Of a stretch of 64,000 nt of DNA, positions 8,950-59,975 are shown one piece after another. The DNA comes from Verrucomicrobiota bacterium. Its GTDB lineage: Bacteria > Verrucomicrobiota > Verrucomicrobiia > Limisphaerales > CANJSG01. The notes under the pieces were generated by a model that was not told where the DNA came from, ran no database searches, and saw only the letters and a program-made list of their open reading frames with translations. Position numbers and translations under genes: made by a program. Position 1 is the first letter of the stretch. Every line of letters begins with the position of its first letter. The stretch is from positions 4,462 to 68,461 of the forward strand of contig JAYTUE010000088.1 of NCBI GenBank assembly GCA_043744715.1. The letters run 5' to 3'.

Positions 8950-11673
8950 ATGAGCGGAACAGCGGAACAGTCCCCCAGGAAAACCGGCAGGAACCGGCTC
9001 AGGATCGGCGGCATCACGGCAGCCGCATTGGTCCTCCTGCTGGTCCTCGCCTACTTCGTCGGAACCAGCGGCGCGTTCATCAAGGGCGTCGTCCTGCCCA
9101 AGGTCGGCACGGCCATGGGCGGCAAGGTGACCGCCGATGAAGTGGCCCTGAGCCCCTTCTCCAGCCTCAACCTCACCGGCTTCAAACTCGAGACCACCGG
9201 CCCCGAGCCGCTCGTCGCCGTGAAGGAAGTCCGCGTGCGCTACAGCCTCTGGTCGATCATCGGCGGCAAGATCGCCGTCGACGAGGTCACGGTCGAATCG
9301 CCCGTGATCAAGGTGGTCTTCAACGCCGACGGCACCAGCAACCTCCCTAAGCCTCCCGCGTCCGAACCTTCAAAACCTTCCTCCCCGTCGTCCTCGTCCA
9401 CGCCCGATCTCGCCATCAAGAACGTCTCGCTGAAAAACGCCACCGTCCTCGTCACGCTCAAGGCCAGGGACGGTTCGCAGGCCACGCATGAAATCTCCGG
9501 GCTCAACCTCACGCTCGACCAGCTCGTCAACGGCGCCCGCAGCGCGCTCAAGATCGACGCCGCGCTCAAGTCGCAGCAGACCGGCGGCACCAACGCCTTC
9601 AGCGCCGCCGGCTCGGTCAACGGCGACATCCAGTTCGAGCTGACCCAGGCGCTGCTGCCCAAGGAGGCCAAGGGCGGCATCAAGGCCAGCCTCGTCGACG
9701 CCACGGGATCGCTCGCCCCGCTCAAGGGATTCCAGGTCGCCCTCGACACGGAAGTCTCGCCCACAGAGCTGAAGAACGTCGGCCTCTCGGTCACGCGCTC
9801 CGGCACGGATCTGGCCCGGGTGAAACTTTCGGGGCCGTTCGACGCCGCCAAGTCCGAAGGAAAACTGAAGCTCGAACTCACAGACATCGACAGGAACCTC
9901 CTCGGCATCGTCGGGCCGATCCTTGGACTCGATTTCGCCGACACGTCGCTCTCCGGCAACGCCGACATCACCCTGGCGAACGCGGGCAAAGAGATCGCCC
10001 TGGCCGGAGTCTTCAGCGGCAAGTCGATCAGCGTGAAACCCGCCGGGGGCGTCGCAACGCCGGTGCTCGACGGCACCGTCGCGTTTTCTCTCCAGCTCAA
10101 GGACAACGTCGCCACCATCGAGAAGTTCACCGTCGAACCGGTGCTCGGGGGGAAATCCGGCGGCACCGTTTCAGCCAGCGGCACCGTCAACCTGAACGAC
10201 ACCACCGGCTCGATCACCGTGCAGTTCGCCAACCTGAACCAGTATCTCGTGAATCCCTTCACCGGCGGCAAGCTCGGCGGTCGCGACCTGATCACGCTGA
10301 CGCTGAACGGCGACGCCAAGGTCCAGCTCGGTTCCGGTGGCAGCATCTCCACCCAGTCGCAGCTGAACGTATCCAATCTCGTCACCAAGGCGCCCGAAGC
10401 CGCCAATCCGGATGCGCCGTTGAAGCTCTCGCTCAATGCCGACATCGCCAAAGCCGGCAGCGTGATCGACTTGAAGAGCGTCCGTGTCCAGCTCCCACCG
10501 ACGGCGCGCGCGAACAATGAACTCCGTGTCACCGGCAAGGCCGACCTGACCAGTCCCGAGGCCGTTTCCGGCAACGTCTCCATCGCGGCCGATGCGCTCG
10601 ACCTGACTGATCTTTACGCCATCGCCACCGGCGGTCCCGCAACGGCTCCCACCCCTCCCTCGCCTGCTCCCGCTTCGACCAACTCGGGTGCGGCGATCAA
10701 GCTCCCCGTCGGCAAGTTCGACCTCTCCGTCGCCATCGGCCACGTCTTCCTCCGCGAGCTGGACGTCGCCGGACTCAAGCTCAACACCCAGGTCGTCGGC
10801 AGCCGCGTCACCGTCAAGCCGCTCGAACTTTCGCTCAACGGCGCGCCCGTCACGGCCTCGGCCGACATCGATCTCGGCGTGCCCGGCTACCGCTACGACG
10901 TCGCCTTCAAGGCGGACAAGGTCCCCACCGGCCCTGCGATCAACTCCTTCGCGCCGGAGCGCAAGGGCCAGTTCGACGGCGTCATCCTCGCCTCCGCCAA
11001 CATCAAGGGCGCGGGCGTCGACGGCTTGGCGTTCAAGAAAAACCTCTCCGGCCAGCTCGCCTTCAGCCTGACCAACGTCAACATCCAGATCGTCTCCGCC
11101 AAATGGAAACCGATCCTGACCGGGATCGGTTTGGCCCTGCGCATCACCGACATCGCCCAGTCGCCGATCAACGCCCTCTATTCGCAGGTCGCGCTCGGCA
11201 ACGGCCAGATCGACCTCAAGTCCACCGTCGTCGAGAGCGAGGCCTTCCGCGCCCACGTCACCGGCGTGATCCACATGGACGACGTGCTGACCAACTCGCT
11301 CCTCACCGGCCTCAGCCCGAAGATGGAGCTACGCCGTTCGCTCGCGAAAAAATCCAACCTGCTTCCCGACAACACGCCCGAGGACGTGAAGTATGTCGCC
11401 CTGCCCGATTTCATGAAGATGAAGGGCACCATCGGCAAACCCGACGTCTCCCTCGACGCCGTCACAGTCACCATGATGGTCCTGAAGTCCACGCCCCTCG
11501 GCAACGCCGCGAACCTCGGCGGCGGCATCCTCAAAGGCGGTGCCGGAGCCGTCGGCAACGTGGTTGGCGGACTTGGCGGACTCTTCGGAGGCAACAAGAC
11601 CAACACCCCTTCAACCAACAAGCCTCCAGCCAATCCGCTCGATGGCCTGCTCAATCCCTTCCGCAAGAAATAA
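8950..11673 (+). CDS. AsmA-family / DUF748-like large envelope protein (N-terminal TM anchor, beta-rich body, Gly-rich C-terminus)
   Basis: The ATG at 8950 gives MSGTAEQSPRKTGRNRLRIGGITAAALVLLLVLAYFV (a TM anchor). There is a long repetitive beta-strand-like body and a C-terminal GGGILKGGAGAVGNVVGGLGGLFGG tail. Family assignment is by overall architecture only. Confidence 0.5.
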   Translation: MSGTAEQSPRKTGRNRLRIGGITAAALVLLLVLAYFVGTSGAFIKGVVLPKVGTAMGGKVTADEVALSPFSSLNLTGFKLETTGPEPLVAVKEVRVRYSLWSIIGGKIAVDEVTVESPVIKVVFNADGTSNLPKPPASEPSKPSSPSSSSTPDLAIKNVSLKNATVLVTLKARDGSQATHEISGLNLTLDQLVNGARSALKIDAALKSQQTGGTNAFSAAGSVNGDIQFELTQALLPKEAKGGIKASLVDATGSLAPLKGFQVALDTEVSPTELKNVGLSVTRSGTDLARVKLSGPFDAAKSEGKLKLELTDIDRNLLGIVGPILGLDFADTSLSGNADITLANAGKEIALAGVFSGKSISVKPAGGVATPVLDGTVAFSLQLKDNVATIEKFTVEPVLGGKSGGTVSASGTVNLNDTTGSITVQFANLNQYLVNPFTGGKLGGRDLITLTLNGDAKVQLGSGGSISTQSQLNVSNLVTKAPEAANPDAPLKLSLNADIAKAGSVIDLKSVRVQLPPTARANNELRVTGKADLTSPEAVSGNVSIAADALDLTDLYAIATGGPATAPTPPSPAPASTNSGAAIKLPVGKFDLSVAIGHVFLRELDVAGLKLNTQVVGSRVTVKPLELSLNGAPVTASADIDLGVPGYRYDVAFKADKVPTGPAINSFAPERKGQFDGVILASANIKGAGVDGLAFKKNLSGQLAFSLTNVNIQIVSAKWKPILTGIGLALRITDIAQSPINALYSQVALGNGQIDLKSTVVESEAFRAHVTGVIHMDDVLTNSLLTGLSPKMELRRSLAKKSNLLPDNTPEDVKYVALPDFMKMKGTIGKPDVSLDAVTVTMMVLKSTPLGNAANLGGGILKGGAGAVGNVVGGLGGLFGGNKTNTPSTNKPPANPLDGLLNPFRKK

Positions 11674-14192: not shown

Positions 14193-14801
14193 CTACTTGA
14201 CGGGGATCTGCAGGAGCTGCGGGGCGGCCCACTGCTCGCCCTTGTCCTTGGTCACGTCACGGATGGTCTTCACCTCGGCGGCGGTCACAGCCGAACCCTT
14301 GTTGCCCCATTCGTTGCGGACGTAGCTGATGACGTTCGCGATGTCTTCGTCCGTCAACTGGTCACGCCAGGCCATCATCGCGTTGTTGTATTCGACGCCG
14401 TTGACCGTCATGGGCCCCTGAACGCCGTTCAGAACAATCCGGACCATGCGGTTGGGCCCTTCGACATTCACCCAGTCGGACTTGGCCAAAGGGGGGAACT
14501 GCCCGGGAGCACCGGCACCGTTGCCTTGATGGCAACCCACGCAGTAGGTGCCGTAGACTTTGCGACCTGGGATAAACCAAGGAGGCAACTCCGGCTTCGG
14601 AGTCGCATCATCGACTTCCTTGAAGCTCTCGAAACGTCCGTAGACATTCGGATCGAAGTCCGCACCCGAGTTGATCGAGCGGACAATCAGGGCGTAGACA
14701 AGAATGCCAAGCGCGGTCACGGCCCAGAGCGGCGCCGGGTTCAGCCGAACCTTGGGCTCGGTCCCGTTTTCCATCGCTGGCTTGTTGGAGAGATCGCTCA
14801 T
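14193..14801 (-). CDS. Membrane-anchored monoheme class I cytochrome c (CcoP-like position)
   Basis: N-terminal TM (LWAVTALGILVYALIV), a single CVGCH heme motif and the distal Met region NNAMMAW. It is the last gene of the operon. Confidence 0.8.
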   Translation of the reverse strand: MSDLSNKPAMENGTEPKVRLNPAPLWAVTALGILVYALIVRSINSGADFDPNVYGRFESFKEVDDATPKPELPPWFIPGRKVYGTYCVGCHQGNGAGAPGQFPPLAKSDWVNVEGPNRMVRIVLNGVQGPMTVNGVEYNNAMMAWRDQLTDEDIANVISYVRNEWGNKGSAVTAAEVKTIRDVTKDKGEQWAAPQLLQIPVK

Positions 14802-14810
14802 GGCTCGGCG

Positions 14811-15539
14811 TTACTTCGCAGCTCCATTCGTCACGGTCTGGCTGACCGCGTTGGTCTTGGCTTTGGGCCGATAGATCGGCGCCTCGAAGAGGTTCACGTC
14901 CTGGCGCAGGCTCTTCAGGTAGGCCACCAGGGCGCGGGCCTCCGAGTTCGGGACCACCTCGTAGCCGGTCTGGTATTTCTTCGGGAGAACGACGGACTCC
15001 GGCAGCTTCAAGGCCGAGGTGGAGCCGCCCTGCGGCATGACCTTCCGATAATCGAAGAGGTGCAGATACGGCGGCATGGTCGACTTGTTGCCGGCTTTGC
15101 CGTCCATGAACGCGTTGGGCGCGAACAGGTGGACGAAGTGCCAGTTCTCGTCCGGCTGACGCAGTCCGATGTTGGAGAGATCGGGTCCCAGCCGCTGCAC
15201 GCCGAACATGGCGGGCTGGTCGAAAAGATAGTCGCGATGGACGCTGAAGCGGTTCAGCTGGGTCCACCGGGCATCGGCCGGATGCGGCGAAACCTGCTGG
15301 CTGTGGCAGTAGTAGCAGCCTTCGCGCTGGTAGATCTCACGGCCTTGGGAGGCGAGGCCCGCGCGGGCCTGGGGATAGATTTCCCCGACATCCCCTTCGG
15401 CAGCGGGGCGGTTCAAAGGCTGGAGCTGGACGTCCGGCTGTTGACGTCCGATCTGGACCTGCGGGGCAAGGACCATCCCCGACCACGAGCCGAGAAATGT
15501 GAGCAGCAATCCGAGAAAGATGAGCGTGCCGTGGTTCAT
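14811..15539 (-). CDS. ccoO: cbb3-type cytochrome c oxidase subunit II (monoheme CcoO)
   Basis: Start trimmed to MNHGTLIFLGLLLTF (TM). CYYCHSQ heme motif, GPDLSNIG and WHFVHLFAPN blocks typical of CcoO. 4-nt overlap with the upstream gene. Confidence 0.8.
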   Translation of the reverse strand: MNHGTLIFLGLLLTFLGSWSGMVLAPQVQIGRQQPDVQLQPLNRPAAEGDVGEIYPQARAGLASQGREIYQREGCYYCHSQQVSPHPADARWTQLNRFSVHRDYLFDQPAMFGVQRLGPDLSNIGLRQPDENWHFVHLFAPNAFMDGKAGNKSTMPPYLHLFDYRKVMPQGGSTSALKLPESVVLPKKYQTGYEVVPNSEARALVAYLKSLRQDVNLFEAPIYRPKAKTNAVSQTVTNGAAK

Positions 15540-16987
15540 TGCTTCGCCTTCGATCCGGTGGTTTCGGCGGCCCACGTGGTGCAGCCGCAATCCTCGACGG
15601 CGACCGTCTTAAGCATGCGGATGATCTGGGAGAGCACCAGAAGCGCGGAGATGAGCAGGAAAAGGAAGCCAAGGGTGCTCATGCCCATGAAGGGGACGAG
15701 GCCTTTGACGACATCGGCCGGGGCCTTGGTTTCATCCGCCCAGATCGACGCCTGCTTCAGTCCTCCCAGGATCAGGGGGATGCTGGTCATGAACAAAGCC
15801 ACCAGCGACGCCGCGATGCTGCCGATCTTGAAGCTGCGTCCGAGCAGGCCCGGGAGCATCAGGTTGTAGCCGGCCAGGATGGAGAAGCCCACGAAGCCGA
15901 AGAGGAGCATGAATGTGAGTCCGGGGCTGAACAGCGTCAGCTGTAGCGTCAGGTTCCGGCTGCGGAGATAGAACGAAGCGCTCAACAGGGCGTAGGAGAC
16001 CAGGGCCGTCAGCGCAAACCGTGCGAAGCGCAGGGACAACGAATCCTTCTCGGAAACCGCCTCGCCATCGGTCGAGTTCCAGAGGTTGTGGACGATGAGC
16101 GCGATGGGAACGAGGAAGATCAAGTTGGCCGACTCGCTGATGGTGATGATCCAGCGGGGAAGCGGCGCACCCGAATGCACTCCACCCCAGCCCGCGAGGA
16201 TCGCCAGGGTCCAAAAAGCGAACGTGGCGGACGAGCGGCTGTGGAGATCCGTCTTGGAGGTCTTGGGAATGACGTAGAACAGGGCACCCAGCCCAAGGAA
16301 TCCGAACCACAGCCAGGTCATGCTGTTGATGAACCAACCGTTGACGGAGAGCTGGACCGCACCGCGCACAGTCTGACCAAGCAGCGTCCAACTGGCCGTC
16401 CCGAGCATCCAGGGCAGCGTCAGAAGCGCACCGATGATGAACCACGCCGCCGGATACAACGTCCGCTCGGTCCGGGAAGCGATGGTGAGAAGACCGCACA
16501 CCGAAATCACGATCGACGCGACGAACAACATCGCCTGCGCGCCGGCGGGCATTTCCAGCCAGGGCAGCCCGGTGTTGTAGCCGGCGAGAATCCCGAGGGT
16601 GCCGATCAGGACCGTGCCGTTCCAAAGCACTCCGCCAAAGGTGAGCACGGCCGGCAGGGCCACTTTGGTCCGGCCAGTCCGGGCCAGAATCCAGATGCCT
16701 AACGCCGCTCCCGACTGGCTGAGAAACCCGTAGAGGAAGGCGTTCATCGCGGCCGGTTGGAGCCGGCCATAGGAAAGAAACGGAAATGAGGCACCCAAGT
16801 TGGGTCCGTGCATCTTCATCGCCGAAAGGAAGAACAGGAACGCGGCGAAGGCGAACCAGAGGGCGCCAAACACCGAAAGGAACAACAGCGGGATCTTGGC
16901 TCCGGAATCCTGATCGGACCGGACGCTGGCCTCGCGGGCTACTTCCGCCTGGATGGAGGGTGAAGCGGGCATGGAGGCGCGGCTCAC
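15536..16987 (-). CDS. CcoN-like heme-copper-oxidase subunit I homologue apparently lacking the heme/CuB histidine ligands
   Basis: About 12 TM segments, located in the ccoN position. By eye it is collinear with CcoN (YGRLQPAAMNAFLYGF; NGWFINSMTWLWFGFLGLGALFYVIPK; GWGGVHSGAPLPRW). Only 4 His occur in 483 aa and the canonical His positions are substituted. Confidence 0.65.
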   Translation of the reverse strand: MSRASMPASPSIQAEVAREASVRSDQDSGAKIPLLFLSVFGALWFAFAAFLFFLSAMKMHGPNLGASFPFLSYGRLQPAAMNAFLYGFLSQSGAALGIWILARTGRTKVALPAVLTFGGVLWNGTVLIGTLGILAGYNTGLPWLEMPAGAQAMLFVASIVISVCGLLTIASRTERTLYPAAWFIIGALLTLPWMLGTASWTLLGQTVRGAVQLSVNGWFINSMTWLWFGFLGLGALFYVIPKTSKTDLHSRSSATFAFWTLAILAGWGGVHSGAPLPRWIITISESANLIFLVPIALIVHNLWNSTDGEAVSEKDSLSLRFARFALTALVSYALLSASFYLRSRNLTLQLTLFSPGLTFMLLFGFVGFSILAGYNLMLPGLLGRSFKIGSIAASLVALFMTSIPLILGGLKQASIWADETKAPADVVKGLVPFMGMSTLGFLFLLISALLVLSQIIRMLKTVAVEDCGCTTWAAETTGSKAKQ

Positions 16988-17343
16988 TCGAAGGCGTTGG
17001 GCTTCTCCGGCAGCTTCGCCGTGGCGGTTTCCAACCGTTCAAGCAGGACCTTGCGGGCCGCCACGGGATCCTGCCATTCGCGGAGGGTGAGCTCCATGGC
17101 GGAGTTGATGGGCAAGCGATAGATACCGCGCTGCGGATCGATGACCGCGGCGTTGGTCAGTGTCGCGGTCGTGGCAGCCGTCACTTCCTGGCGGAACTTG
17201 AGGCGCTCGGCCGAACGCTGGGCCGCGATGTCGGGCGGGGTCACCTGGCGGGTCGCGAGACGGACGGTGCCGTAACCGATGGCTATCGCGCCGACGATAC
17301 CGATGAGGTAGATGCCGCAGGGCTTCCTGGTTTCGCTGCTCAT
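16984..17343 (-). CDS. Small single-TM membrane protein of unknown function linking actF and the ccoN-like gene
   Basis: 119 aa. It has an N-terminal TM (CGIYLIGIVGAIAIGYGTV) and a soluble tail. It starts 12 nt after the actF stop and overlaps the next gene by 4 nt. I recognise no motif. Confidence 0.55.
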   Translation of the reverse strand: MSSETRKPCGIYLIGIVGAIAIGYGTVRLATRQVTPPDIAAQRSAERLKFRQEVTAATTATLTNAAVIDPQRGIYRLPINSAMELTLREWQDPVAARKVLLERLETATAKLPEKPNAFE

Positions 17344-17355
17344 GGTTTCAAAGGG

Positions 17356-18627
17356 TTACTTGATGCCAAGGTGGGCGGCTGTGATGGAGCCCTTGGCCGG
17401 AGGGACGTAGATCCCGAGGCACTCCGCCATGCGCGGATCCCTCTGCGGATAGGGCGGATTGGCCTTGTAGAGTTTCAGCCAGGCCATCGTGGTGATGCCG
17501 CCGATGAAGGCCATGCAGGCCAGGTCCGCGTAGTGCAGGACAAAACCTTCCTTGTGAAGGACGGGCATAATGTTGAACTGCATGTCCATGTAATGGACCA
17601 CCCAAGCGAGGGCGACCACCGGACCCATGATGGCGATGCTCCTCTTGGCGTCCTGGCGCAGCATGATGAGAAAGGGCACGAAGAAATGGCCGAAGATCAT
17701 CAACATGCCGACGCCATACCAGGAACCAGCCTCACGGCGGATGAACCAGAAGGTCTCTTCCGGCATGTTGGCGTTCCAGATGAGGAAGTATTGGGAGAAG
17801 GTGATGTAGGCGTAGAAGACGGTGAACGCGAAGAACATCGTGCCGATGTCATGGAACGTCTTCTTAGTGACCACTGCGCGAAGAGGCCCAGTGCGCTGCA
17901 GCAGCATTGTGATGATATAGAGCGTGCCGTAGGTCAGCCAGACGCTGCCGGCGAAGTAGAAGACGCCATACATGGTGCTGAAGAACTGGTGCATCAGCGA
18001 CTTCATCAGCATGAAGCAGAGGAACGTTCCCGAGAAGGCGAAGGCGAAGATGCCCCAACCGGCATGGACCCGGTTGCTGAAGGTCCACTTGGCGGCTCCG
18101 TCCTTGTCCTGGCCGGTCGTGTTGGACCGGAACTTCCAGGCAAGGAAGGTCCAGACCGCGAAGCAGGCGGTGATCATGATGACCCATCCCGCCCTGGTGA
18201 ACAAAGGCTGCTTGGCCTCAAGGGCGTGGTCGGTGTGGACATCGGCGAAGAGCCAGGGATAGAGCTGGATCTTGTCGCTCAGGGCGAAGCCGACGATGGG
18301 AAGCCAGAGGAGGAACATCACCGGGGCCAGCATCGCGATGTTTTCGATGATGCGCCGCAGCGGAACCGTCCAATAGGCGTCGAAGAGGTGATGGATCAGG
18401 ACCAAGAACAAGCCCCCGAACACGAGGCTCAGGAAGAACATGTAGGCGGTGAGGTAGGAGTAGGCGAGCTGCTTGCCGTGGTCCGCGACATCGGTGCCCG
18501 GCACCTTCGTCGCGAAAAACGCGACCACGCCGAGGATGAGGCCGACGACGGTCAGGATGAGCGGCAGCTTGCCCCAGATCGGAGCGAGCTTCAGCGTTGC
18601 GACTTCTTCTTTGGCGTGGGAGGCCAT
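17356..18627 (-). CDS. actF: Alternative complex III subunit ActF (NrfD/PsrC-like integral membrane subunit)
   Basis: Polytopic membrane protein with a composition similar to ActC. Its position after actE matches the canonical actABCDEF order. Confidence 0.75.
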   Translation of the reverse strand: MASHAKEEVATLKLAPIWGKLPLILTVVGLILGVVAFFATKVPGTDVADHGKQLAYSYLTAYMFFLSLVFGGLFLVLIHHLFDAYWTVPLRRIIENIAMLAPVMFLLWLPIVGFALSDKIQLYPWLFADVHTDHALEAKQPLFTRAGWVIMITACFAVWTFLAWKFRSNTTGQDKDGAAKWTFSNRVHAGWGIFAFAFSGTFLCFMLMKSLMHQFFSTMYGVFYFAGSVWLTYGTLYIITMLLQRTGPLRAVVTKKTFHDIGTMFFAFTVFYAYITFSQYFLIWNANMPEETFWFIRREAGSWYGVGMLMIFGHFFVPFLIMLRQDAKRSIAIMGPVVALAWVVHYMDMQFNIMPVLHKEGFVLHYADLACMAFIGGITTMAWLKLYKANPPYPQRDPRMAECLGIYVPPAKGSITAAHLGIK

Positions 18628-18640
18628 AGTTCTCGAAATA

Positions 18641-19285
18641 TTACTTCTTCAGGGTGGCCATGATGTCCGCCGGGACTTCGTCCTTCGTGGCCAGACGGGC
18701 GCGTTGTAGGGCGCGGACGTAGACGATGACGGCCCAGCGGTCGGCGGGTTCCAGCTTGTCGGCATAACCCATCATCGTGTTCTTGCCGACGCTGATCGTG
18801 TGGAATATCTCGCCGTCCGCCATCCTCACGATGCGGGGGTCATGGAGACTGGCCGTGGCGGTCATGCCATACTTCGAGGTCACGCCCTTGCCATCGCCGA
18901 CCGAGCTGTGGCAGGGGGAGCAGTAGATGTTGTAGCGCTGCTGGCCCCGTTCCATGAACTGGGCTGTGACCGGAGCGGGAATGAGCTCAACGAAGTTCGT
19001 CTTACCGGAGATTTTGCCGGTGTTGAAGGGGTGGGACTGGTGGCCGAATACCTTCTCGGCACCCACCTGCACTGCGGACGCGTGAGCCACCGTGCCTTCA
19101 ACGGGCAGGCGGGACGAGAGCCCGTCGGGAAAGAAGTTGTTCGGAGCCTGGGGACGCAGCTTGGGCTGGCGATCCATGTCGGGGAACAGCTCGATCGGCG
19201 TGTTCCTGGTGAAGCTGCCGCGGAAGCCGGCCACGGCCACGACTCCGACCACGAGAACGAAAAATCCAACAAGGAAGTAGCGCAT
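18641..19285 (-). CDS. actE: Alternative complex III subunit ActE (monoheme cytochrome c)
   Basis: N-terminal TM/signal sequence and a single CSPCH motif. 1-nt overlap (TAATG) with actD. Confidence 0.8.
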   Translation of the reverse strand: MRYFLVGFFVLVVGVVAVAGFRGSFTRNTPIELFPDMDRQPKLRPQAPNNFFPDGLSSRLPVEGTVAHASAVQVGAEKVFGHQSHPFNTGKISGKTNFVELIPAPVTAQFMERGQQRYNIYCSPCHSSVGDGKGVTSKYGMTATASLHDPRIVRMADGEIFHTISVGKNTMMGYADKLEPADRWAVIVYVRALQRARLATKDEVPADIMATLKK

Positions 19286-19866
19286 TATTCCTCCACCTGC
19301 TCGATGTGCTTGCCGCCTGTGGATTCGAGCAGCTTGCGGGTTTCAGTCTCGGAATAACGCGGATCGGTCACTTCGACCGCGATGAAGAACTTGTCGTTCT
19401 GGGCGCCCGCGTGGAACCTCTTATTTTTGAAGAGCGGGTTATACCAGCGGGGCAGCTTGTTGAGGACCGCCATGCCGAAGAGCGTTCCGAACGCCGAGAG
19501 CAGGATCGTCAACTCGTAGCTCACCGGGAAAGCGTAGAGCGGGCTGAAGAGCGGTTTGCCGCCCACCACGATCGGATAGTCATACTGGCTCATCCACCAG
19601 ATCATGCCCATGCCGATGGTGAAACCGGCGCAGCCGCCAATGAAGCTGAAGTATCCAACCTTGGATTCGCCCAGGCCCATCGCGTCGTCCATGCCGTGGA
19701 TCGGGAACGGGGAATACACGTCCCAATACTTGTAGCCGGCGTCGCGCACCACTTCGGCGGCGTGCATCAGGTCGGCCGGAGTGTCGTATTCGGCGAGGAT
19801 GGAGTGGGGACGGTTGAAGGTGCCGACCTGGCCCGTCGCCCCCGTGGATTGAGTCGCGTTACTCAT
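19285..19866 (-). CDS. actD: Alternative complex III subunit ActD (DUF3341-type)
   Basis: Start trimmed to MSNATQSTG at 19866, forming a TGATG junction with the actC stop. A soluble N-domain (ILAEYDTPADLMHAAEVVRDAGY) is followed by two TM helices. The 5' part of the 372-aa ORF in the track overlaps actC in another frame. Confidence 0.75.
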   Translation of the reverse strand: MSNATQSTGATGQVGTFNRPHSILAEYDTPADLMHAAEVVRDAGYKYWDVYSPFPIHGMDDAMGLGESKVGYFSFIGGCAGFTIGMGMIWWMSQYDYPIVVGGKPLFSPLYAFPVSYELTILLSAFGTLFGMAVLNKLPRWYNPLFKNKRFHAGAQNDKFFIAVEVTDPRYSETETRKLLESTGGKHIEQVEE

Positions 19867-21346
19867 CAGTGATGCCCTCCCTTGGCTCCGCCGAGCGGAT
19901 GGTGCGGATCGGCCTGCGGCGTCACGCCCTTGACTTCGGAGATGGCGATGACCGGCAGGAACTTCATGAACAGCAGGAACAGCGTCAGGAACAAGCCGAA
20001 CGATCCGGTGAACGTCATGATGTCCACCCAGGTCGGACTGAACATGCCCCAGTTCGACGGGAGGAAATCGCGGTGCAACGAGGTCACGATGATGTTGAAG
20101 CGCTCGAACCACATGCCGACGTTGACGAAGCCGGCGATGATCCAGACGAAGACCAGGTTGGTCCTGAGCTTCTTGGACCAGAAGAAGTGCGGGCTGATGA
20201 CGTTGCAGATCATCATGCTCCAGTAGGCCCACCAGTAGGGCGCGGGATCGACCCCGAACATCGGCCCGAAGATCCACGGATCCGCAGCGCGGTTCTTGAT
20301 GAACACGTCCAGCTCGTAGGGATTGCCTCCATACCATGCGACGAAGAACTCCATGATGTAGGCGTAGCCGACGATCGAGCCCGTCGCGAGGAGCACCTTG
20401 CACATCAGTTCGACGTGCCGAACGGTGATGAGGTCCTCAAGTTTGCAGAGCGTCCGCAGGGGGATCATGAGGGTCAGAACCATGCCGAAACCGGAGAAGA
20501 TCGCGCCGGCCACGAAGTAGGGCGGGAAGATCGTCGCGTGCCATCCCGGGAGCTGGGAAACGGCGAAGTCGAAGGAAACGATCGAGTGGACGGAGAGAAC
20601 CAACGGCGTGCTCAATCCGGCCAGGATCAGATAGGCCTTCTCGTAGTTGCTCCAGTTCCGGTTGGAACCGCTCCAGCCGAGGGCGAAGAGGCCGTAGAAG
20701 AACTTGCGGAGCTTGGTCTTGGCGCGATCACGCATCGTCGCGAGATCGGGAACCAGTCCGGTATACCAGAAGAGCGTCGAAACCGTCGCATAGGTCGAAA
20801 CGGCGAACACGTCCCAGAGCAGCGGTGAACGGAACTGGGGCCAGATGCCGTTCGAATTGGGGAACGGGATCAGATAGCCGGGCAGCGTGGCGAACCAGAC
20901 GCGGCCGGTATGGATGACCGGGAAGATGCCGGCGCAGACGACGGCGAAGATGGTCATCGCTTCGGCGGCACGGTTGATCGAGGTCCGCCATTTCTGCCGG
21001 AGCAGGAAGAGCACGGCCGAGATCAGCGTTCCGGCGTGGCCGATGCCGATCCAGAAGACGAAGTTCGTGATGTCCCAGGCCCAGGCGTTGGGCTGGTTCA
21101 GGCCCCAGACACCGACACCGGTCGAGATCAGGTAGGTCACCATCGTGAACAGCATCAATGTTCCGAGAGCGCTGATGAGGAAAGCCGGCCACCACCACTT
21201 GGGCGTCTTGCCCTCGGCCACACTTGCGACCTGGTCGGTGATCCACGCCAAAGAGCGGTTGTGATGGACCAACGGCTCGCGCACGAGTTCGGGCGGCGGA
21301 CCCTGAACCTTTGGAAGTCCGGATGAAACTGCGACGTCCGAGGCCA

Positions 21347-21347
<1 letters not shown>
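19866..21347 (-). CDS. actC: Alternative complex III subunit ActC (NrfD/PsrC-like quinol-interacting membrane subunit)
   Basis: 493-aa polytopic NrfD-family-like protein immediately after the Fe-S subunit. Confidence 0.8.
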
Positions 21348-24777
<3,430 letters not shown>

Positions 24778-24790
<13 letters not shown>

Positions 24791-25428
24791 GCGGAGCAGT
24801 TCTGGGACGCGTTCACCTTCCAGTCGTGGGCCAGCTTCAGGCCGCTCTTCAACTGCTTCTCGGAGTCGACCTTCAGGTCGAGGTTGTAGACGTCCTTGGG
24901 ATCACGCAGCGCCTGCTCGGGGTTCCGGTGGCAGTCCAGGCAGAAGGACATGCTGAGAGACTTGGCATGGTAGACCTCGTCCATGTGGTTGATCTGGCCA
25001 TGGCACTCGACACACGAGATGCCGCGGCTCACATGGACGGAATGGTTGAAATAGACGTAGTCGGGGACCTTGTGGATCTGCACCCACTCGATCGGCTTGC
25101 TCGTGGTGTAGCTCTGGCGGACTAGCTCCAGCTTGGGCGACTCCTTCAGCACGATGCTGTGGCAGTTCATGCAGGTGTTCGCCGCCGGGACATTCGAGAA
25201 CCACGACTTGTCCACGTTGTTGTGGCAGTAGCGGCAGTCGATCTGGAGCTGGTTGGCGTGAATGTCGTGCGAGAACGCCACCGGCTGCGTGGGCTTATAG
25301 CCGACGCGCGTATACTTCGGGGTGAAGTAATACCCGACGGCGCCCAGCGCGAATGTGCCAAGAAGGGCGGCACCAATGCCGACCTTCAAGGGCAGCGAAT
25401 TGGTCCATTTCGGAAAAAAGTCTGACAT
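24778..25428 (-). CDS. actA: Alternative complex III subunit ActA (pentaheme cytochrome c, NrfH/c3-like)
   Basis: N-terminal TM plus five CxxCH motifs (CRYCH, CMNCH, CVECH, CLDCH, CSACH). Confidence 0.88.
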
Positions 25429-25959: not shown

Positions 25960-26061
25960 CACTCATCGTCAATCCCAGTGTAGCTGAAATCCATTCCCGG
26001 GAGCGAAATGCCCCCGGATGCAGGCCCTGTGGCTTGCGCCAGTGCAGAAAGGTCCATCGCC

Positions 26062-26616
26062 ATGAAAGTCAAACCATCGAACAAGTCAGGCAAAGTCATC
26101 ATGGAAGTCGGCTGCAAGGATACGCCCATCCTCGCCGCCAGCTCCGTCGCCACGTCGCCCATCGCACTGAAGAGCATCCTGGTCCCGGTGGATTTCTCGG
26201 AATGTTCCGAGAAGGCCCTCCTTTACGCGCGGGGTTTCGCGAAACAGTTCGGAGCCCGCATCGTCCTGCTCCACGTCGTCGAGCTGTCGTATTCCTACGC
26301 GGACATGGCCATCTTCGACTATGCGAGCCTGGAGAAGGATCTCCGACGGGGTGCCGAGATCCGGCTCCAAAACCTCGCCAAGGGAGTCGAAAAGGCCGGC
26401 ACCAAGGTCACCGTCGAGATCCGCCTTGGCCGGCCGGCGCGGGAAGTGGCCAAGATCGCCAAGGAGCTTGGCACCGATCTGATCGTCATCTCCACACACG
26501 GCTACACGGGCTTGAAGCACGCGCTGCTCGGCAGCAATGCGGAAACGATCGTGCGACATGCCCCCTGCCCCGTCCTCGTCGTGCGTCCGCAGGAACACGA
26601 GTTCTTGAAAGCGTAA
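26062..26616 (+). CDS. Universal stress protein (UspA family)
   Basis: ILVPVDFSECSEKAL...ARIVLLHVVE...DLIVISTHGYTGLKHALLGSNAETIVRHAPCPVLVV is the canonical Usp fold signature. The start was chosen at ATG 26062. Confidence 0.85.
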   Translation: MKVKPSNKSGKVIMEVGCKDTPILAASSVATSPIALKSILVPVDFSECSEKALLYARGFAKQFGARIVLLHVVELSYSYADMAIFDYASLEKDLRRGAEIRLQNLAKGVEKAGTKVTVEIRLGRPAREVAKIAKELGTDLIVISTHGYTGLKHALLGSNAETIVRHAPCPVLVVRPQEHEFLKA

Positions 26617-27362: not shown

Positions 27363-27866
27363 ATGACCCAAGACACCCGCAAAGAAGTCCCGCCCCTCGA
27401 GAATCCCGCGCTCGAAGCGGCGATGGCAGGTCATCCGTTCCTCAAGGATCTGCCGCCGCCCATCTTAAAGAAGCTGGCGGACTCCGGCATGGTCATGCGC
27501 TTTCCGGCGGGCCAGCGGATCTTCATCGAAGGCGATCCCGCGAACCGCTTCTACCTCATCGTCACGGGAACCGTCGTCCTCTCCGCACCCGCGTCGGAAG
27601 GCCGCTCCGTCACGCTCCAAACGATCGGGGCGGGCGACGTCCTGGGATGGTCCTGGCTCATCCCTCCCTACTCCTGGCTCTTCGACGCCACCGCCGAAAC
27701 CGACGTGGAGGCCATCTTCTTCTACGGAACCCGTCTGCGGGAGGAGTGCGAGAGCGACCACGACCTCGGCTACGAGCTGATGAAACGCATGGGCACCATC
27801 GTCGTGCATCGGCTCCAATCCGTGCGGCACAAGCTCGTGGCGCTTGCCTCCGCCAAGGACCGCTGA
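27363..27866 (+). CDS. Stand-alone cyclic-nucleotide-binding domain protein (no HTH)
   Basis: FLKDLPPPILKKLADSGMVMRFPAGQRIFIEGDPANRFYLIVTGTVVL...GAGDVLGWSWL is a CAP-effector-type beta-roll. At 167 aa it ends right after the C-helix. Confidence 0.8.
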   Translation: MTQDTRKEVPPLENPALEAAMAGHPFLKDLPPPILKKLADSGMVMRFPAGQRIFIEGDPANRFYLIVTGTVVLSAPASEGRSVTLQTIGAGDVLGWSWLIPPYSWLFDATAETDVEAIFFYGTRLREECESDHDLGYELMKRMGTIVVHRLQSVRHKLVALASAKDR

Positions 27867-44157: not shown

Positions 44158-46308
44158 TCAATAAGGCAACGGGAACTTTGCGGTCAGCTCGCGCACGCGG
44201 CTCTTCACGGCATGGGCGGCGGCTACGTTCTTAACGTCGAGGAGGACCTCGGAGATCATGTCGGCGATGGCGGCCATTTCCTGTTCCTTCATGCCCCGCG
44301 TGGTGACTGCGGGTGTTCCCAGCCGCACGCCGCTGGCCTGGAAGGGCGATCTGGTCTCGAACGGAATGGTGTTCTTGTTCGTGGTGATGCCGGCTTCGTC
44401 GAGCACGAGCTGGCAGTCCTTGCCCGTCATGTTCTTCGCGCCCACGTCCACCAGCATGAGATGGTTCTCTGTGCCGCCGGAGACGAGGCGGAAACCGTTT
44501 CGCTTCATGCCGTCGGCCAACGCGGCGGCGTTCTTCACGATCTGCTGCTGGTAGCCCTTGAAGCTGTCCTGTAGCGCCTCCTTGAAGCAGACGGCCTTGG
44601 CCGCGATGACGTGCATGAGCGGCCCGCCCTGGATGCCGGGGAAGACGTTGGAGTCGATTTCCTTCGCATGTTTCTCGCGGCACATGATCAGGCCGCCGCG
44701 GGGACCGCGCAGGGTTTTGTGCGTGGTGGTGGTGACGAAGTCGGCGTAGGGAACGGGGCTCGGATGGATGCCGGCGGCGACGAGACCCGCGATGTGCGCG
44801 ATGTCCGCCAGCATGTAGGCGCCGACCTCTTGGGCGATCTCGCCGAGGCGCTTGAAGTCGATGATGCGCGGATAGGCGGACGCGCCGACGGTGATCATCT
44901 TCGGCCTGTGCTCACGGGCCATCTGCGCGAGCTGGTCGTAGTCGATGCGTTCGTCGTCCTTGCGGACGCCGTAGTGGACGATCTCGAAGAACTTGCCGGA
45001 GAAGTTGGCCTTGTTGCCGTGGGTCAAATGGCCGCCATGGGACAGGTCCATGGTCAGCATCTTGTCGCCGGGCTTCAGCACGGCGAAATACACGGCCATG
45101 TTCGCGCCGGAGCCGGAGTGCGGCTGGACGTTGGCGTGCTCGGCGCCGAAGAGTTTCTTCGCGCGGTCGATGGCAAGGCGTTCCGCGTCGTCGACGTGTT
45201 CGCACCCGCCATACCAGCGTTTGCCGGGATAGCCCTCGGCATACTTGTTCGTCAGGACGGAGCCCTGCGCCTCCATGACGGCGGGGCTGGTGAAGTTCTC
45301 GGAGGCGATGAGCTCGATGTTTTCAAGTTGTCGCCGACGTTCCAGCTGGACGATGTCGGCGATCTCGGAATCCACCGAGCGCAGTCGAAGCGCGGGATCG
45401 ACCTCGAACTTGACGACCCGCCGCTCGTGGCGGCCGCCGGCGAATGAGCCGCCGAGGAAGGCGTCGATGATCTCGATGGCCTGCTGGGGCGAGGTCTGCT
45501 TCGCGCCGAGGCAGAGGATGTTCGCGTTGTTGTGCTCGCGGGCGAGGGCGGCCATCTCGGCATTGAAGACGAGCGCGGCGCGGGCGCCGGGAACCTTGTT
45601 GGCGGCCATGCTCATGCCGATGCCGGAGGTGCAGACGAGAAGCCCGCATTGCGCTTTCCCGGCGACCACGGCCTCGGCGACGGCCTTGGCGTGGTCGGGA
45701 TAGTCCGTGGACTCGGTTGAATGGGCGCCCAGGTCCTCGAAGACGACGCCTTTGGACTGGAGATGGCGTTTAAGGGTTTCCTTGAGCTGGTAGCCGCCGT
45801 GGTCGCAACCGATCGAGAGCATGGTTTTCTTCAGGGATGCCGGTGAAGGATGGTTCTGTTCGATGAAACGGAGAATGGTCGAGATGCCCTGCTCTATCTG
45901 GTCGCGGCAGGCCACGTAGACGTCGAGAGCCCCCCCGATGGGATCGCTGATGTCCTTCTCATACGCGTCGAGAGTGTCGTCGAATTCGCGGAGGAGGAAC
46001 GTCTTGTCGGCCGCCTGGGGGTAGAGCAGGAGAATGGTCTCCAGATGGCCGTGGGTCATGCCGAAGATGTAGTCGGCCTCCTTGACCAGATCCCGCGTCA
46101 GCATCTGACTGCGCTGCTGGCCGATGTCGATGCCGATCTCGCGGCAGGCCCGGACGGAATTGTGGCTGGGGGACTGGCCGTCCATCGCCCCCACCCCGGC
46201 GGAAAGGACGCGGAAATCGCCGCGATCCCGGACCGCGCGACGGAAAATGCCTTCAGCCATGGGGCTGCGGCAGATGTTCCCGGTGCAGATGAAAAGGACG
46301 GTCTTCAT
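44158..46308 (-). CDS. Tri-domain fusion: LMW protein-tyrosine/arginine phosphatase + ribose-5-phosphate isomerase B + serine hydroxymethyltransferase
   Basis: A single uninterrupted 716-aa ORF. The P-loop [13 protein letters not shown] and DISDPIGG mark the LMW-PTP domain. [13 protein letters not shown]...[14 protein letters not shown] marks the RpiB/LacAB domain. [18 protein letters not shown]...[14 protein letters not shown] marks the SHMT domain with its PLP lysine. Confidence 0.85.
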
Positions 46309-57205: not shown

Positions 57206-59167
<1,962 letters not shown>

Positions 59168-59180
59168 GCAGGCAGCGAGG

Positions 59181-59975
59181 ATGTCACAAACTGTGATCTC
59201 CTTGGAAACCGTCATGAGCACCGACTCCAACCTGATCCCCGCCGAGCGCATCGAGCGCCGCATCCTGCTCGTGCGGGGGCAGAAGGTGCTGCTGGATTTC
59301 CAGTTGGCGGAACTCTACGAGGTGCCAACCAAGGCCATCAACCAAGTGGTGAACCGGAACCTCGAACGCTTCTCCGAGGACTTCATGTTCCAGCTCACGG
59401 AAGCGGAGATGCTCGAAGCCGCCCTGACTCCTGGCATCGCCGTTCCGTGGCCCGTCCGGCTGTTTAGCTGCGGAGCAGCGGCAGACAGTAGCCCGCGGCG
59501 TGAGCCGTGGGTTGGCGGCAATTGGGATCAAGCCCCGGCAGGGGCGGCAGATCCGGCAGGCGCTTCTGTCGCCCCTGCCGGGGCTTGTCCATCACTCGGC
59601 CATCGGACCCACGGCTCACGCCGTGGGCTACTATCTTCCGCACCTCCGGCGCTGGAGACGGAATGGCACGCGGGAACATGGCCGCTGGCCTTCACCGAGC
59701 ACGGCGTGGCCTTGCTCTCCGGGCTGCTTCACGGCCAGCACGTTGCCCGGACCACCGTTTCCATTCTCCGAGTCTTCGCCCAGTTGACGAAGCAGGAGCA
59801 GTTGGCTGCGGACGCTCAAGACGCCATGAACGAAATCCGCACTTGGCTGGATCGGGATCGTTCCAGCGTCTTTGAAACGCCGCGTTCGCCCAGGTTTTTG
59901 CCCACAGTCCAGCGCCGCGACTGCGCTCCGCGCTTTCAATCCCACTTCGCAACTCGCAAATCGAAACTCTCATGA
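59181..59975 (+). CDS. ORF6N (KilA-N-related DNA-binding) domain protein, split by an in-frame repeat insertion, inserted between sdhA and sdhB
   Basis: [53 protein letters not shown] and [16 protein letters not shown]...ILRVFAQL are the two conserved halves of ORF6N. About 100 unrelated Ala/Pro/Gly-rich codons separate them. The stop overlaps the sdhB ATG (ATGA). An alternative start is the ATG at 59214. Confidence 0.7.
59487..59632. repeat. 146-nt nested-palindrome (REPIN/MITE-like) element inside the ORF6N gene
   Basis: The outer 26-nt arms are AGTAGCCCGCGGCGTGAGCCGTGGGT (59487..59512) and ACCCACGGCTCACGCCGTGGGCTACT (59607..59632), with 1 mismatch. The inner arms are a perfect 17 nt: AAGCCCCGGCAGGGGCG (59530..59546) and CGCCCCTGCCGGGGCTT (59570..59586). 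Confidence 0.85.

Follow-up and report, generated by a model that had tools for sequence, protein, structure and literature searches.

In the cbb3-type cytochrome c oxidases of known structure (Pseudomonas stutzeri, 3MK7; P. aeruginosa, 8SMR and 9G6B), the catalytic subunit CcoN is a 12-helix membrane protein that holds both heme b His, the heme b3 His, three CuB His and a cross-linked Tyr, has Ser240, His243 and Thr215 in its proton channel, and is encoded upstream of the monoheme cytochrome CcoO and the diheme cytochrome CcoP. A homologue of this subunit, referred to here as psN, is encoded on the minus strand (15536-16987) of a 64,000-nucleotide stretch of contig JAYTUE010000088.1 from a Verrucomicrobiota bacterium (the window), within an operon for Alternative Complex III (ACIII). 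psN shares with CcoN the 12-helix fold and a collinear sequence, and its gene lies directly upstream of those for a monoheme cytochrome of the CcoO type and a cytochrome c resembling CcoP. Unlike CcoN, it keeps only one CuB His of the whole ligand set, and Ser240, His243 and Thr215 are replaced. The operon differs as well, since its CcoP-like partner is monoheme (as is that of Telmatocola sphagniphila, described below) and no ccoS or ccoI lies near psN.

The linkage of ACIII and cbb3 genes in Verrucomicrobia is known, and the ACIII-adjacent gene in Verrucomicrobia/Opitutaceae has been taken as a C-type high-affinity oxidase (PMC8498564, PMC6688271). A related arrangement is that of Flavobacterium johnsoniae, in which heme-copper oxidase genes follow the ACIII operon as they do in the window; according to Sun et al. 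(2018), as cited in PMC8498564, ACIII of this bacterium physically docks the oxidase, an arrangement that makes a soluble cytochrome c dispensable. Its partner is, however, an active A-type oxidase, whereas the putative partner of ACIII in the window is a ligand-poor C-type shell. Members of the same superfamily that do not reduce O2 are the nitric oxide reductases (NOR) of the cNOR, qNOR, eNOR, sNOR and gNOR types, in which the Tyr cofactor has been lost (Murali et al. 2024, PMC11214002). According to that survey, the most recent one of the superfamily, every heme-copper oxidase family other than gNOR has fully conserved active-site His, a single one having changed in gNOR. The NOR families differ from psN in having kept their His ligands, and NorB is a much weaker match to it in fold and sequence than CcoN. 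No description of a ligand-free CcoN was found by full-text searches of the freely readable literature.

Fold and metal-ligand columns of psN

psN is a full-length CcoN homologue, with a similarity far beyond chance. The Pfam profile COX1 (PF00115) matched it with an E-value of 3.4e-19 and 69.5 bits (gathering cut-off 34.8), the match spanning residues 37-440 of psN and positions 6-433 of the 436 of the profile. P. stutzeri CcoN (3mk7_A) was matched by phmmer with an E-value of 1e-9, and a profile of the psN family, when compared with the PDB, recovered 9g6b_A (E 3.4e-46) and 3mk7_A (E 8.5e-46) with about 445 residues aligned. The best NCBIfam match was likewise the ccoN equivalog TIGR00780, yet with 54.7 bits against a cut-off of 583.15. 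The AlphaFold2 (AF2) model of psN contains twelve long helices (predicted local distance difference test, pLDDT, 82; predicted template modelling score, pTM, 0.85). All top Foldseek matches of this model were cbb3 CcoN chains, 3mk7_A, 9g6b_A and 8smr_E among them, which superposed with template modelling (TM) scores of 0.82-0.86, those of the three named chains being 0.83-0.86, and root-mean-square deviations of 2.5-2.8 Å, whereas A-type, B-type and NOR subunits reached TM scores of 0.64-0.77 at E-values of about 1e-8, approximately seven orders of magnitude worse. By fold and descent, psN is a C-family subunit I.

Residues common to CcoN and the psN family are Trp24, Gly54, Arg55, Trp102, Glu125, Arg152, Trp162, Trp204, Asn208, Tyr224, Pro227, Lys228, Pro265, Trp267, Thr339, Tyr363 and Pro367 (P. 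stutzeri numbering, used for all ligand positions). The assignment of psN to the NOR type or to another known divergent family was considered and rejected: NorB was only a marginal profile match (E 4e-6 over 45 residues), its fold match was weaker, and NORs keep the His ligands (PMC11214002).

The metal-ligand columns were read from four alignments, namely phmmer to 3mk7 and 9g6b, MAFFT with a fragment of 9g6b, the psN family profile to the PDB, and BLASTP to an intact relative from Telmatocola, the last being nearly gap-free (E 1e-51). All four gave the same assignment. The axial heme b ligand His60 is replaced by A80 (codon 16748-16750, minus strand, as for all positions of the operon given below), and the CuB ligand His207 by N221 (16325-16327), which is flanked by the conserved W218 and the family-conserved equivalent of Asn208. 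The segment A265-G-W-G-G-V-H271-S272 (16172-16195) corresponds to the stretch from Tyr251 to His257-His258; here the cross-linked Tyr251 has become A265 and the CuB ligand His258 has become S272, while the CuB ligand His257 is kept as H271. In the triplet L357-T-F359 (15911-15919), the heme b3 ligand His345 is replaced by L357 and the second heme b ligand, His347, by F359. In total, psN has thus lost five of its six ligand His together with the cross-linked Tyr. H271 is kept in 5 of 81 sequences only, psN of the window and its four closest relatives. A shift of the register is not credible, because the ligand columns are bracketed by anchors that are common to the psN family and real CcoN: Trp204 and Asn208, Gly255, Pro265 and Trp267, and Thr339. 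The positions of Thr215, Tyr223, Ser240, His243 and Tyr317, which are taken here to be the polar residues of the single cbb3 proton channel, are occupied in psN by Gly, Phe, Ala, Ala and Leu, respectively, and most of the family resembles psN in this.

An earlier reading, made by eye from the sequence only, had described psN as collinear with cbb3 subunit I, and every one of its alignment blocks proved to be right. Its claim that all heme and CuB ligands are lost stands for five of the six His but not for the CuB position of H271. Its count of only four His in the whole sequence, with no H-x-H in the C-terminal helices, proved accurate, psN having no HxH at all, and the profile alignment, in which an error of the manual register should have become visible, places no conserved His in any ligand column. 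Judged from its residues, psN can very probably neither bind its canonical hemes and copper nor act as an oxidase. psN should consequently not be classified among the cbb3 oxidases, as it lacks the heme ligands, the CuB ligand set and the Tyr and scores below the equivalog cut-off.

Conservation among relatives and the intact sister operon

Relatives of psN were sought in one genome per species; 129 were found, and 80 loci were retrieved. At least 129 species-level genomes therefore carry such a gene, almost all of them being metagenome-assembled genomes (MAGs) of Verrucomicrobiota of the Limisphaerales/Pedosphaera and Opitutales types. A protein search seeded with an Opitutus-labelled relative returned uncultured sources only. 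In a profile search of 1.84 billion cluster representatives, 533 clusters were found at E <= 1e-30 and 1429 at E <= 1e-10, and the Opitutales form is present in clusters of up to 356 metagenomic copies. Several contigs with a typical verrucomicrobial ACIII/psN operon bear implausible taxon labels (Klebsiella, L079; Polynucleobacter, L074; Saccharimonadales, L022; Bifidobacterium/Bifidobacteriaceae, L010, L015, L025-L029, L034 and L037); the MAG bins in question are probably contaminated or wrongly labelled.

An intact ligand set is missing from all 80 loci, none of which has His in more than two of the six columns. The residues found instead are diverse: Gln, Ala, Trp or Ser in the His60 column, Gly, Ser, His, Gln, Asn or Ala in the His207 column, Gln, Leu or Ile in the His345 column, and Gln, Thr, Phe, Glu or Asp in the His347 column. 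Such freely varying replacements (Gln, Ala, Trp, Ser, Gly, Pro, Leu, Thr and others) argue against a new conserved ligand set. The same tendency was observed in 150 diverse representatives (clusters at 50% identity), 148 of which lack the full set: the six columns contain no His in 84 representatives, one in 51, two in 10, three in 2, four in 1 and all six in 2. The Ser240 position is Ala in 124 of the 150, the Tyr251 position is Gly or Ala in 124, the His243 position is Gly or Ala in most, and the Thr215 position is most often Gly. No new Met, Cys, Lys or His is conserved near the cofactor pockets of the family. As substitute ligands, Met, Cys, Lys, Tyr and a displaced His were considered and rejected, since neither the ligand columns nor their neighbours conserve any of them. 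In some Opitutales, the position adjacent to the His60 column carries His in alternation with Arg, Lys and Gln.

The gene is full-length and open in 79 of the 80 loci, the copy of L050 being cut to 38 amino acids. The ratio of nonsynonymous to synonymous substitution rates (dN/dS) of psN, as compared with relatives of about 88% amino-acid identity, is 0.084-0.097, which is indistinguishable from the values for actB, actC and actF (0.05-0.11); those of the ccoO-like gene and of the gene for a 119-amino acid (aa) protein upstream of psN are 0.035-0.06 and 0.08-0.11, respectively. Going by these substitution ratios, psN is under purifying selection and is not a decaying pseudogene. Conservation is not even over the protein: the periplasmic loops of the family have a mean conservation of 0.48 and the cytoplasmic loops of 0.36, and highly conserved positions make up 20 of 57 periplasmic and 5 of 38 cytoplasmic loop positions. 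In the solved cbb3 structures, CcoO sits on the periplasmic side of CcoN.

The gene order actABCDEF, psN, ccoO-like gene, cytochrome c gene was found in every locus with enough flanking sequence. The heme-binding motif CxxCH is kept in the CcoO-like protein in 79 of 80 loci, in the cytochrome c in 78 of 79 and in ActE in 68 of 68, and five ActA hemes are present in 50 of 52, so the partners have remained redox proteins, unlike the former catalytic subunit. The single CcoO-like protein lacking CxxCH is a called open reading frame (ORF) of L016, in which an assembly frameshift is possible. Opitutales-type loci have no gene for the 119-aa protein; instead, an extra c-type cytochrome of 255 aa is encoded between actF and psN. 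It was observed in L088 (9215-9982), with an equivalent in about 20 loci (e.g. L054, around position 9622), and the psN gene of these loci is flanked by cytochrome c genes on both sides.

The nearest intact relative found is CcoN of Telmatocola sphagniphila (WP_213498146.1; P0115), which is far closer to psN than proteobacterial CcoN and is one of the two fully liganded representatives. Its columns for His60, His207, Tyr251, His257, His258, His345 and His347 read HHYHHHH, as they do in 120 of 120 of its close relatives (including Tuwongella and Gemmata; mean pairwise identity 67%). The Telmatocola locus consists of actA, actB, actCD, actE, actF and genes for a 153-aa protein, FixS (CcoS), COX1, FixO, a cytochrome c and a P-type ATPase (CcoI-like). 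This ACIII-cbb3 operon of Gemmatales thus shares with the window actA-F, a small single-helix protein, CcoN, CcoO and a monoheme cytochrome c, but differs from it in keeping all six His and the Tyr, and in the presence of FixS/CcoS and the CcoI-type ATPase, both of which are missing from the operon of the window. With Telmatocola FixS and CcoI as queries, tblastn gave no match in the 64-kb window, nor within 10 kb of psN in the 80 loci. Identity between the two operons is 60% for ActC, 40% for the cytochrome c, 39% for ActB, 37.5% for CcoO and 25% for CcoN. Relative to Telmatocola, psN has therefore changed faster than the CcoO-like protein beside it (25% versus 37.5%), whereas in pairs of intact operons the two values are about equal.

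Partial states also occur. One protein encoded in an ACIII operon (P0072; L086, 5791-7251) has the columns HHAQYHH, having retained His207 and the three heme ligands (two His for heme b, one for heme b3) but neither the Tyr nor the other two CuB His; as its sequence suggests, it is possibly an intermediate, half-degraded form. The columns of two other representatives read HHGHAIQ (P0060) and QQAHHHN (P0160). An intact sister operon, a partial state and the faster divergence of psN together indicate an ancestral active ACIII-linked cbb3 oxidase that lost catalysis while the protein was retained. The neighbour-joining tree of the family was star-like and was not used for counting independent losses. 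A second ligand-free CcoN-like family of 475 aa and about 27% identity to psN was noticed in two loci (P0017, L081, 10001-11428; P0016, L082, 2588-4015). Its ligand columns read TAGVQVF and AAGAQVF, and its genes are followed by those for FixO and a cytochrome c and lie divergently beside a cluster for Rieske protein, split cytochrome b and ferredoxin and beside complex I genes, not beside ACIII; this may be an independent fossilisation of cbb3 next to a bc-type complex III.

Possible role of psN beside ACIII

Descended from the catalytic core of cbb3 oxidase, the psN family is a pseudoenzyme of wide occurrence that has become fixed in the ACIII operon of many Verrucomicrobiota. As to its role, it is rather likely that psN is a dead CcoN descendant retained as a scaffold, which holds c-type cytochromes on ACIII as part of an electron relay. 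The ancestor would have had an ACIII-cbb3 operon as in Gemmatales (actABCDEF, small protein, ccoS, ccoN, ccoO, cytochrome c, ccoI). The psN lineage would then have lost the heme and copper ligands, the polar residues of the proton channel and the linked ccoS and ccoI, while purifying selection preserved the 12-helix shell together with the CcoO partner and the CcoP-like cytochrome c. The shell would now serve as a stoichiometric non-redox subunit, anchoring the CcoO-like protein and the cytochrome c of 202 aa in the membrane beside ACIII. Electrons derived from menaquinol would leave ActA/ActE for the hemes c of these two cytochromes and pass from there to an acceptor whose genes lie elsewhere, for instance a different terminal oxidase or a periplasmic reductase, no O2 being reduced inside psN. 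The scaffold or relay role, the physical association with ACIII and the identity of the final acceptor are the parts of this scheme that one has to infer.

The sequence-only reading had likewise suggested a structural pseudo-oxidase and had proposed a survey of orthologues. The survey brought out the same ligand loss in all 80 related loci and the same ACIII linkage wherever the flank suffices, and the suggestion gains from it, as well as from the ligand loss in 148 of the 150 representatives, the purifying selection and the invariant gene order; the intact sister clade, with the CcoS/CcoI genes that the operon of the window lacks, speaks for it too. The more conserved periplasmic loops, the extra cytochrome c of Opitutales and the Flavobacterium ACIII-oxidase precedent are each consistent with a scaffold role. 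The Core 1 and Core 2 subunits of mitochondrial cytochrome bc1 are inactive relatives of the matrix processing peptidase. They resemble psN in that an enzyme fold was kept as a structural part after the catalytic residues had been lost, but psN has its origin in the catalytic core of a different respiratory enzyme, complex IV, and the analogy is functional, with no homology.

Several points weigh against the scaffold role. An association of psN with CcoO, cytochrome c or ACIII is suggested only indirectly, by gene order and start/stop overlaps, and the reason for keeping a 12-helix shell merely as an anchor is not obvious. psN has also kept several polar residues of real CcoN (Glu125, Arg55, Asn289, Tyr224 and Thr339), so that a residual ion-conducting or other role is possible. 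In Opitutales and some of the Limisphaerales, the positions of His345 and His347 are frequently, although not universally, occupied by Gln. On sequence grounds, heme binding by way of residues other than His is conceivable. Finally, neither tblastn, run with CcoN queries of the canonical type and of the psN family, nor a search for A-type signature motifs found an intact oxidase gene in the 64-kb window.

The retained polar residues, which lie within the membrane and on its periplasmic side, and the recurrence of Gln would also agree with a repurposing of psN as a proton or ion conduit coupled to ACIII, as a quinone or lipid module, or as the seat of a new metal or cofactor site without His. 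The strong purifying selection over the whole 12-helix protein and the description of ACIII proton translocation as unsettled (PMC8498564) would fit such a function as well. The channel residues of cbb3 are, however, mostly replaced by Ala, Gly or Phe, the residues that took the place of the ligands are not conserved throughout the family, so that no single new site is evident, and the family alignment revealed no charged or metal-binding motif that is both new and conserved; repurposing is accordingly regarded as unlikely, if worth keeping in mind. Less probable again is a decoy acting in regulation or assembly, which would partition electrons among real oxidases or take part transiently in the biogenesis of ACIII. 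psN is apparently co-transcribed with ACIII and the cytochromes, and pseudoenzymes often are regulators or scaffolds, but the fixed slot, the coupled start and stop codons and the universal retention look more like a stoichiometric subunit, and neither Pfam nor NCBIfam revealed a regulatory domain in psN.

The two remaining explanations concern the gene itself. psN could be a working cbb3 oxidase if the ligand loss were an artefact of alignment, the His being shifted or supplied elsewhere; the CcoN fold, the CcoO partner and H271 at a CuB position would agree with this. It is hardly conceivable in view of four concordant alignments (BLASTP at E 1e-51 and the profile at E 3e-46 among them), the anchors around the ligand columns, the mere four His and missing HxH, the lack of any His conserved family-wide at or next to a ligand column, and a TIGR00780 score of 54.7 against a cut-off of 583. 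The probability that psN is a decaying pseudogene, a recently inactivated ccoN, is practically negligible: loss of the catalytic residues and divergence faster than that of CcoO are what such a gene would display, but the frame is open and full-length in nearly all loci from at least two orders, dN/dS is about 0.09, hundreds of diverged clusters exist, some of which contain metagenomic copies by the hundred, the fold is predicted with confidence, and the start and stop codons overlap with those of the neighbouring genes.

The scaffold role can be extended further, to a tentative proposal that falls somewhat short of being probable: many Verrucomicrobiota might run ACIII as an obligate supercomplex around a metal-free fossil oxidase, the shell of which is indispensable and possibly ion-conducting, with the former cbb3 cytochromes acting as a membrane-bound heme c output wire to other reductases; the family beside Rieske protein and cytochrome b (L081/L082) would be an independent second case. 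If so, cofactor-free shells of heme-copper oxidases would be a recurrent, previously unrecognised class of respiratory subunits, and many environmental calls of 'cbb3 oxidase' in Verrucomicrobiota would be false positives for high-affinity aerobic respiration. Proteins of the psN type are named 'cbb3-type cytochrome c oxidase subunit I' by the pipelines of the Joint Genome Institute (JGI) and NCBI. The genes of ACIII operons annotated as high-affinity oxidase in many Verrucomicrobiota almost certainly cannot reduce oxygen, and, as at least 129 species-level genomes carry the ligand-free form, which is also abundant in metagenomes, inferences of microaerobic respiration from this marker in Verrucomicrobiota would be wrong. 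A large family without nearly all ligands, taken with those relatives in the same operon context that are intact or half-degraded, would provide a natural series for the study of the transition from metalloenzyme to pseudoenzyme, and psN is a testable handle on the electron hand-off of ACIII and on the contribution of the oxidase scaffold apart from catalysis.

Operon layout and other genes of the window

psN is part of a ten-gene operon on the minus strand (actA, actB, actC, actD, actE, actF, the 119-aa gene, psN, the ccoO-like gene and a cytochrome c gene). Its ORF starts with GTG and encodes 483 aa; public gene calls use an in-frame ATG at 16972, which gives a protein of 478 aa. The GTG (16987-16985) overlaps by 4 nucleotides (nt) with the TGA (16986-16984) of the 119-aa gene, and the ATG of the ccoO-like gene (15539-15537) by 4 nt with the TGA of psN (15538-15536). 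Both overlaps had been reported by the sequence-only reading, and are visible at the codon level; the heme motifs that it had listed for the partners (CYYCH in the CcoO-like protein, CVGCH in the cytochrome c, five CxxCH in ActA and CSPCH in ActE) are all present.

The six act genes follow the canonical ACIII order and encode proteins in which the cofactor motifs are present. ActA (24778-25428) is a pentaheme cytochrome c with five CxxCH (Pfam Cytochrome_C7 and Cytochrom_CIII), and ActB (21347-24790) is the iron-sulfur/molybdopterin-like subunit (Pfam Fer4_7 and Fer4_11; 39% identity to Telmatocola ActB). ActC (19866-21347) was identified as the NrfD-type membrane subunit that interacts with quinol (Pfam NrfD, E 1.1e-17), ActD (19285-19866) by Pfam PF11821 (ActD, E 8.6e-65), and ActE (18641-19285) as a monoheme cytochrome c with CSPCH (Pfam Cytochrome_CBB3, E 1.1e-9). 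ActF (17356-18627), the second large membrane subunit of ACIII, has 33% identity to Telmatocola ActF (E 1.4e-60) and is syntenic in all loci.

The CcoO-like protein (14811-15539) is a monoheme c-type cytochrome with an N-terminal helix (Pfam FixO, E 2.1e-24; NF011055, E 3.3e-27), which carries CYYCH (15303-15317) and a Met motif, '..STMPPY'. In about 20 loci of the Limisphaerales type (e.g. L007, L010, L011, L014, L018 and L024), the CcoO-like ORF is 300-340 aa long, with an insertion of about 90 aa between CxxCH and the rest of the FixO domain. The last gene of the operon (14193-14801) encodes the membrane-anchored, CcoP-like monoheme cytochrome c of 202 aa (Pfam Cytochrom_C, E 1.8e-14; Cytochrome_CBB3, E 3.6e-12). 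It contains a single CVGCH (14529-14543) and matches the ccoP model TIGR00782 with E 2.4e-10 and 40 bits, below the cut-off of 180; with one CxxCH, it is not diheme.

The 119-aa protein encoded between actF and psN (16984-17343) has a single helix and a conserved '..RLPI..AMEL..' segment, and matched no family of Pfam or NCBIfam. A gene is present at this slot in 43 Limisphaerales-type loci. The segment is shared, by eye, with a 98-aa protein of L086 (5491-5787) and with the 153-aa protein of Telmatocola (L083, 9240-9701). The L086 protein has tblastn matches in 31 related loci, and neither of these two small proteins gave a tblastn match to the window at E <= 1e-3. The 119-aa protein may be an unnamed subunit or an assembly factor of ACIII-linked cbb3-type modules. 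Divergently oriented upstream of actA are genes for a universal stress protein (26008-26616, plus strand) and a small protein with a cyclic-nucleotide-binding domain (27363-27866, plus strand), which are possible regulators of the operon.

Two further observations concern other parts of the window. An ORF of 716 aa (44158-46308, minus strand) combines a low-molecular-weight phosphotyrosine phosphatase, an RpiB/LacAB isomerase and a full-length serine hydroxymethyltransferase, and is either an unusual three-domain fusion or a set of adjacent genes read through in one frame. A gene for the flavoprotein of succinate dehydrogenase/fumarate reductase (57206-59167, plus strand) is followed by an ORF with an ORF6N domain of the phage antirepressor type (59181-59975, plus strand), which occupies the slot expected for the iron-sulfur subunit.

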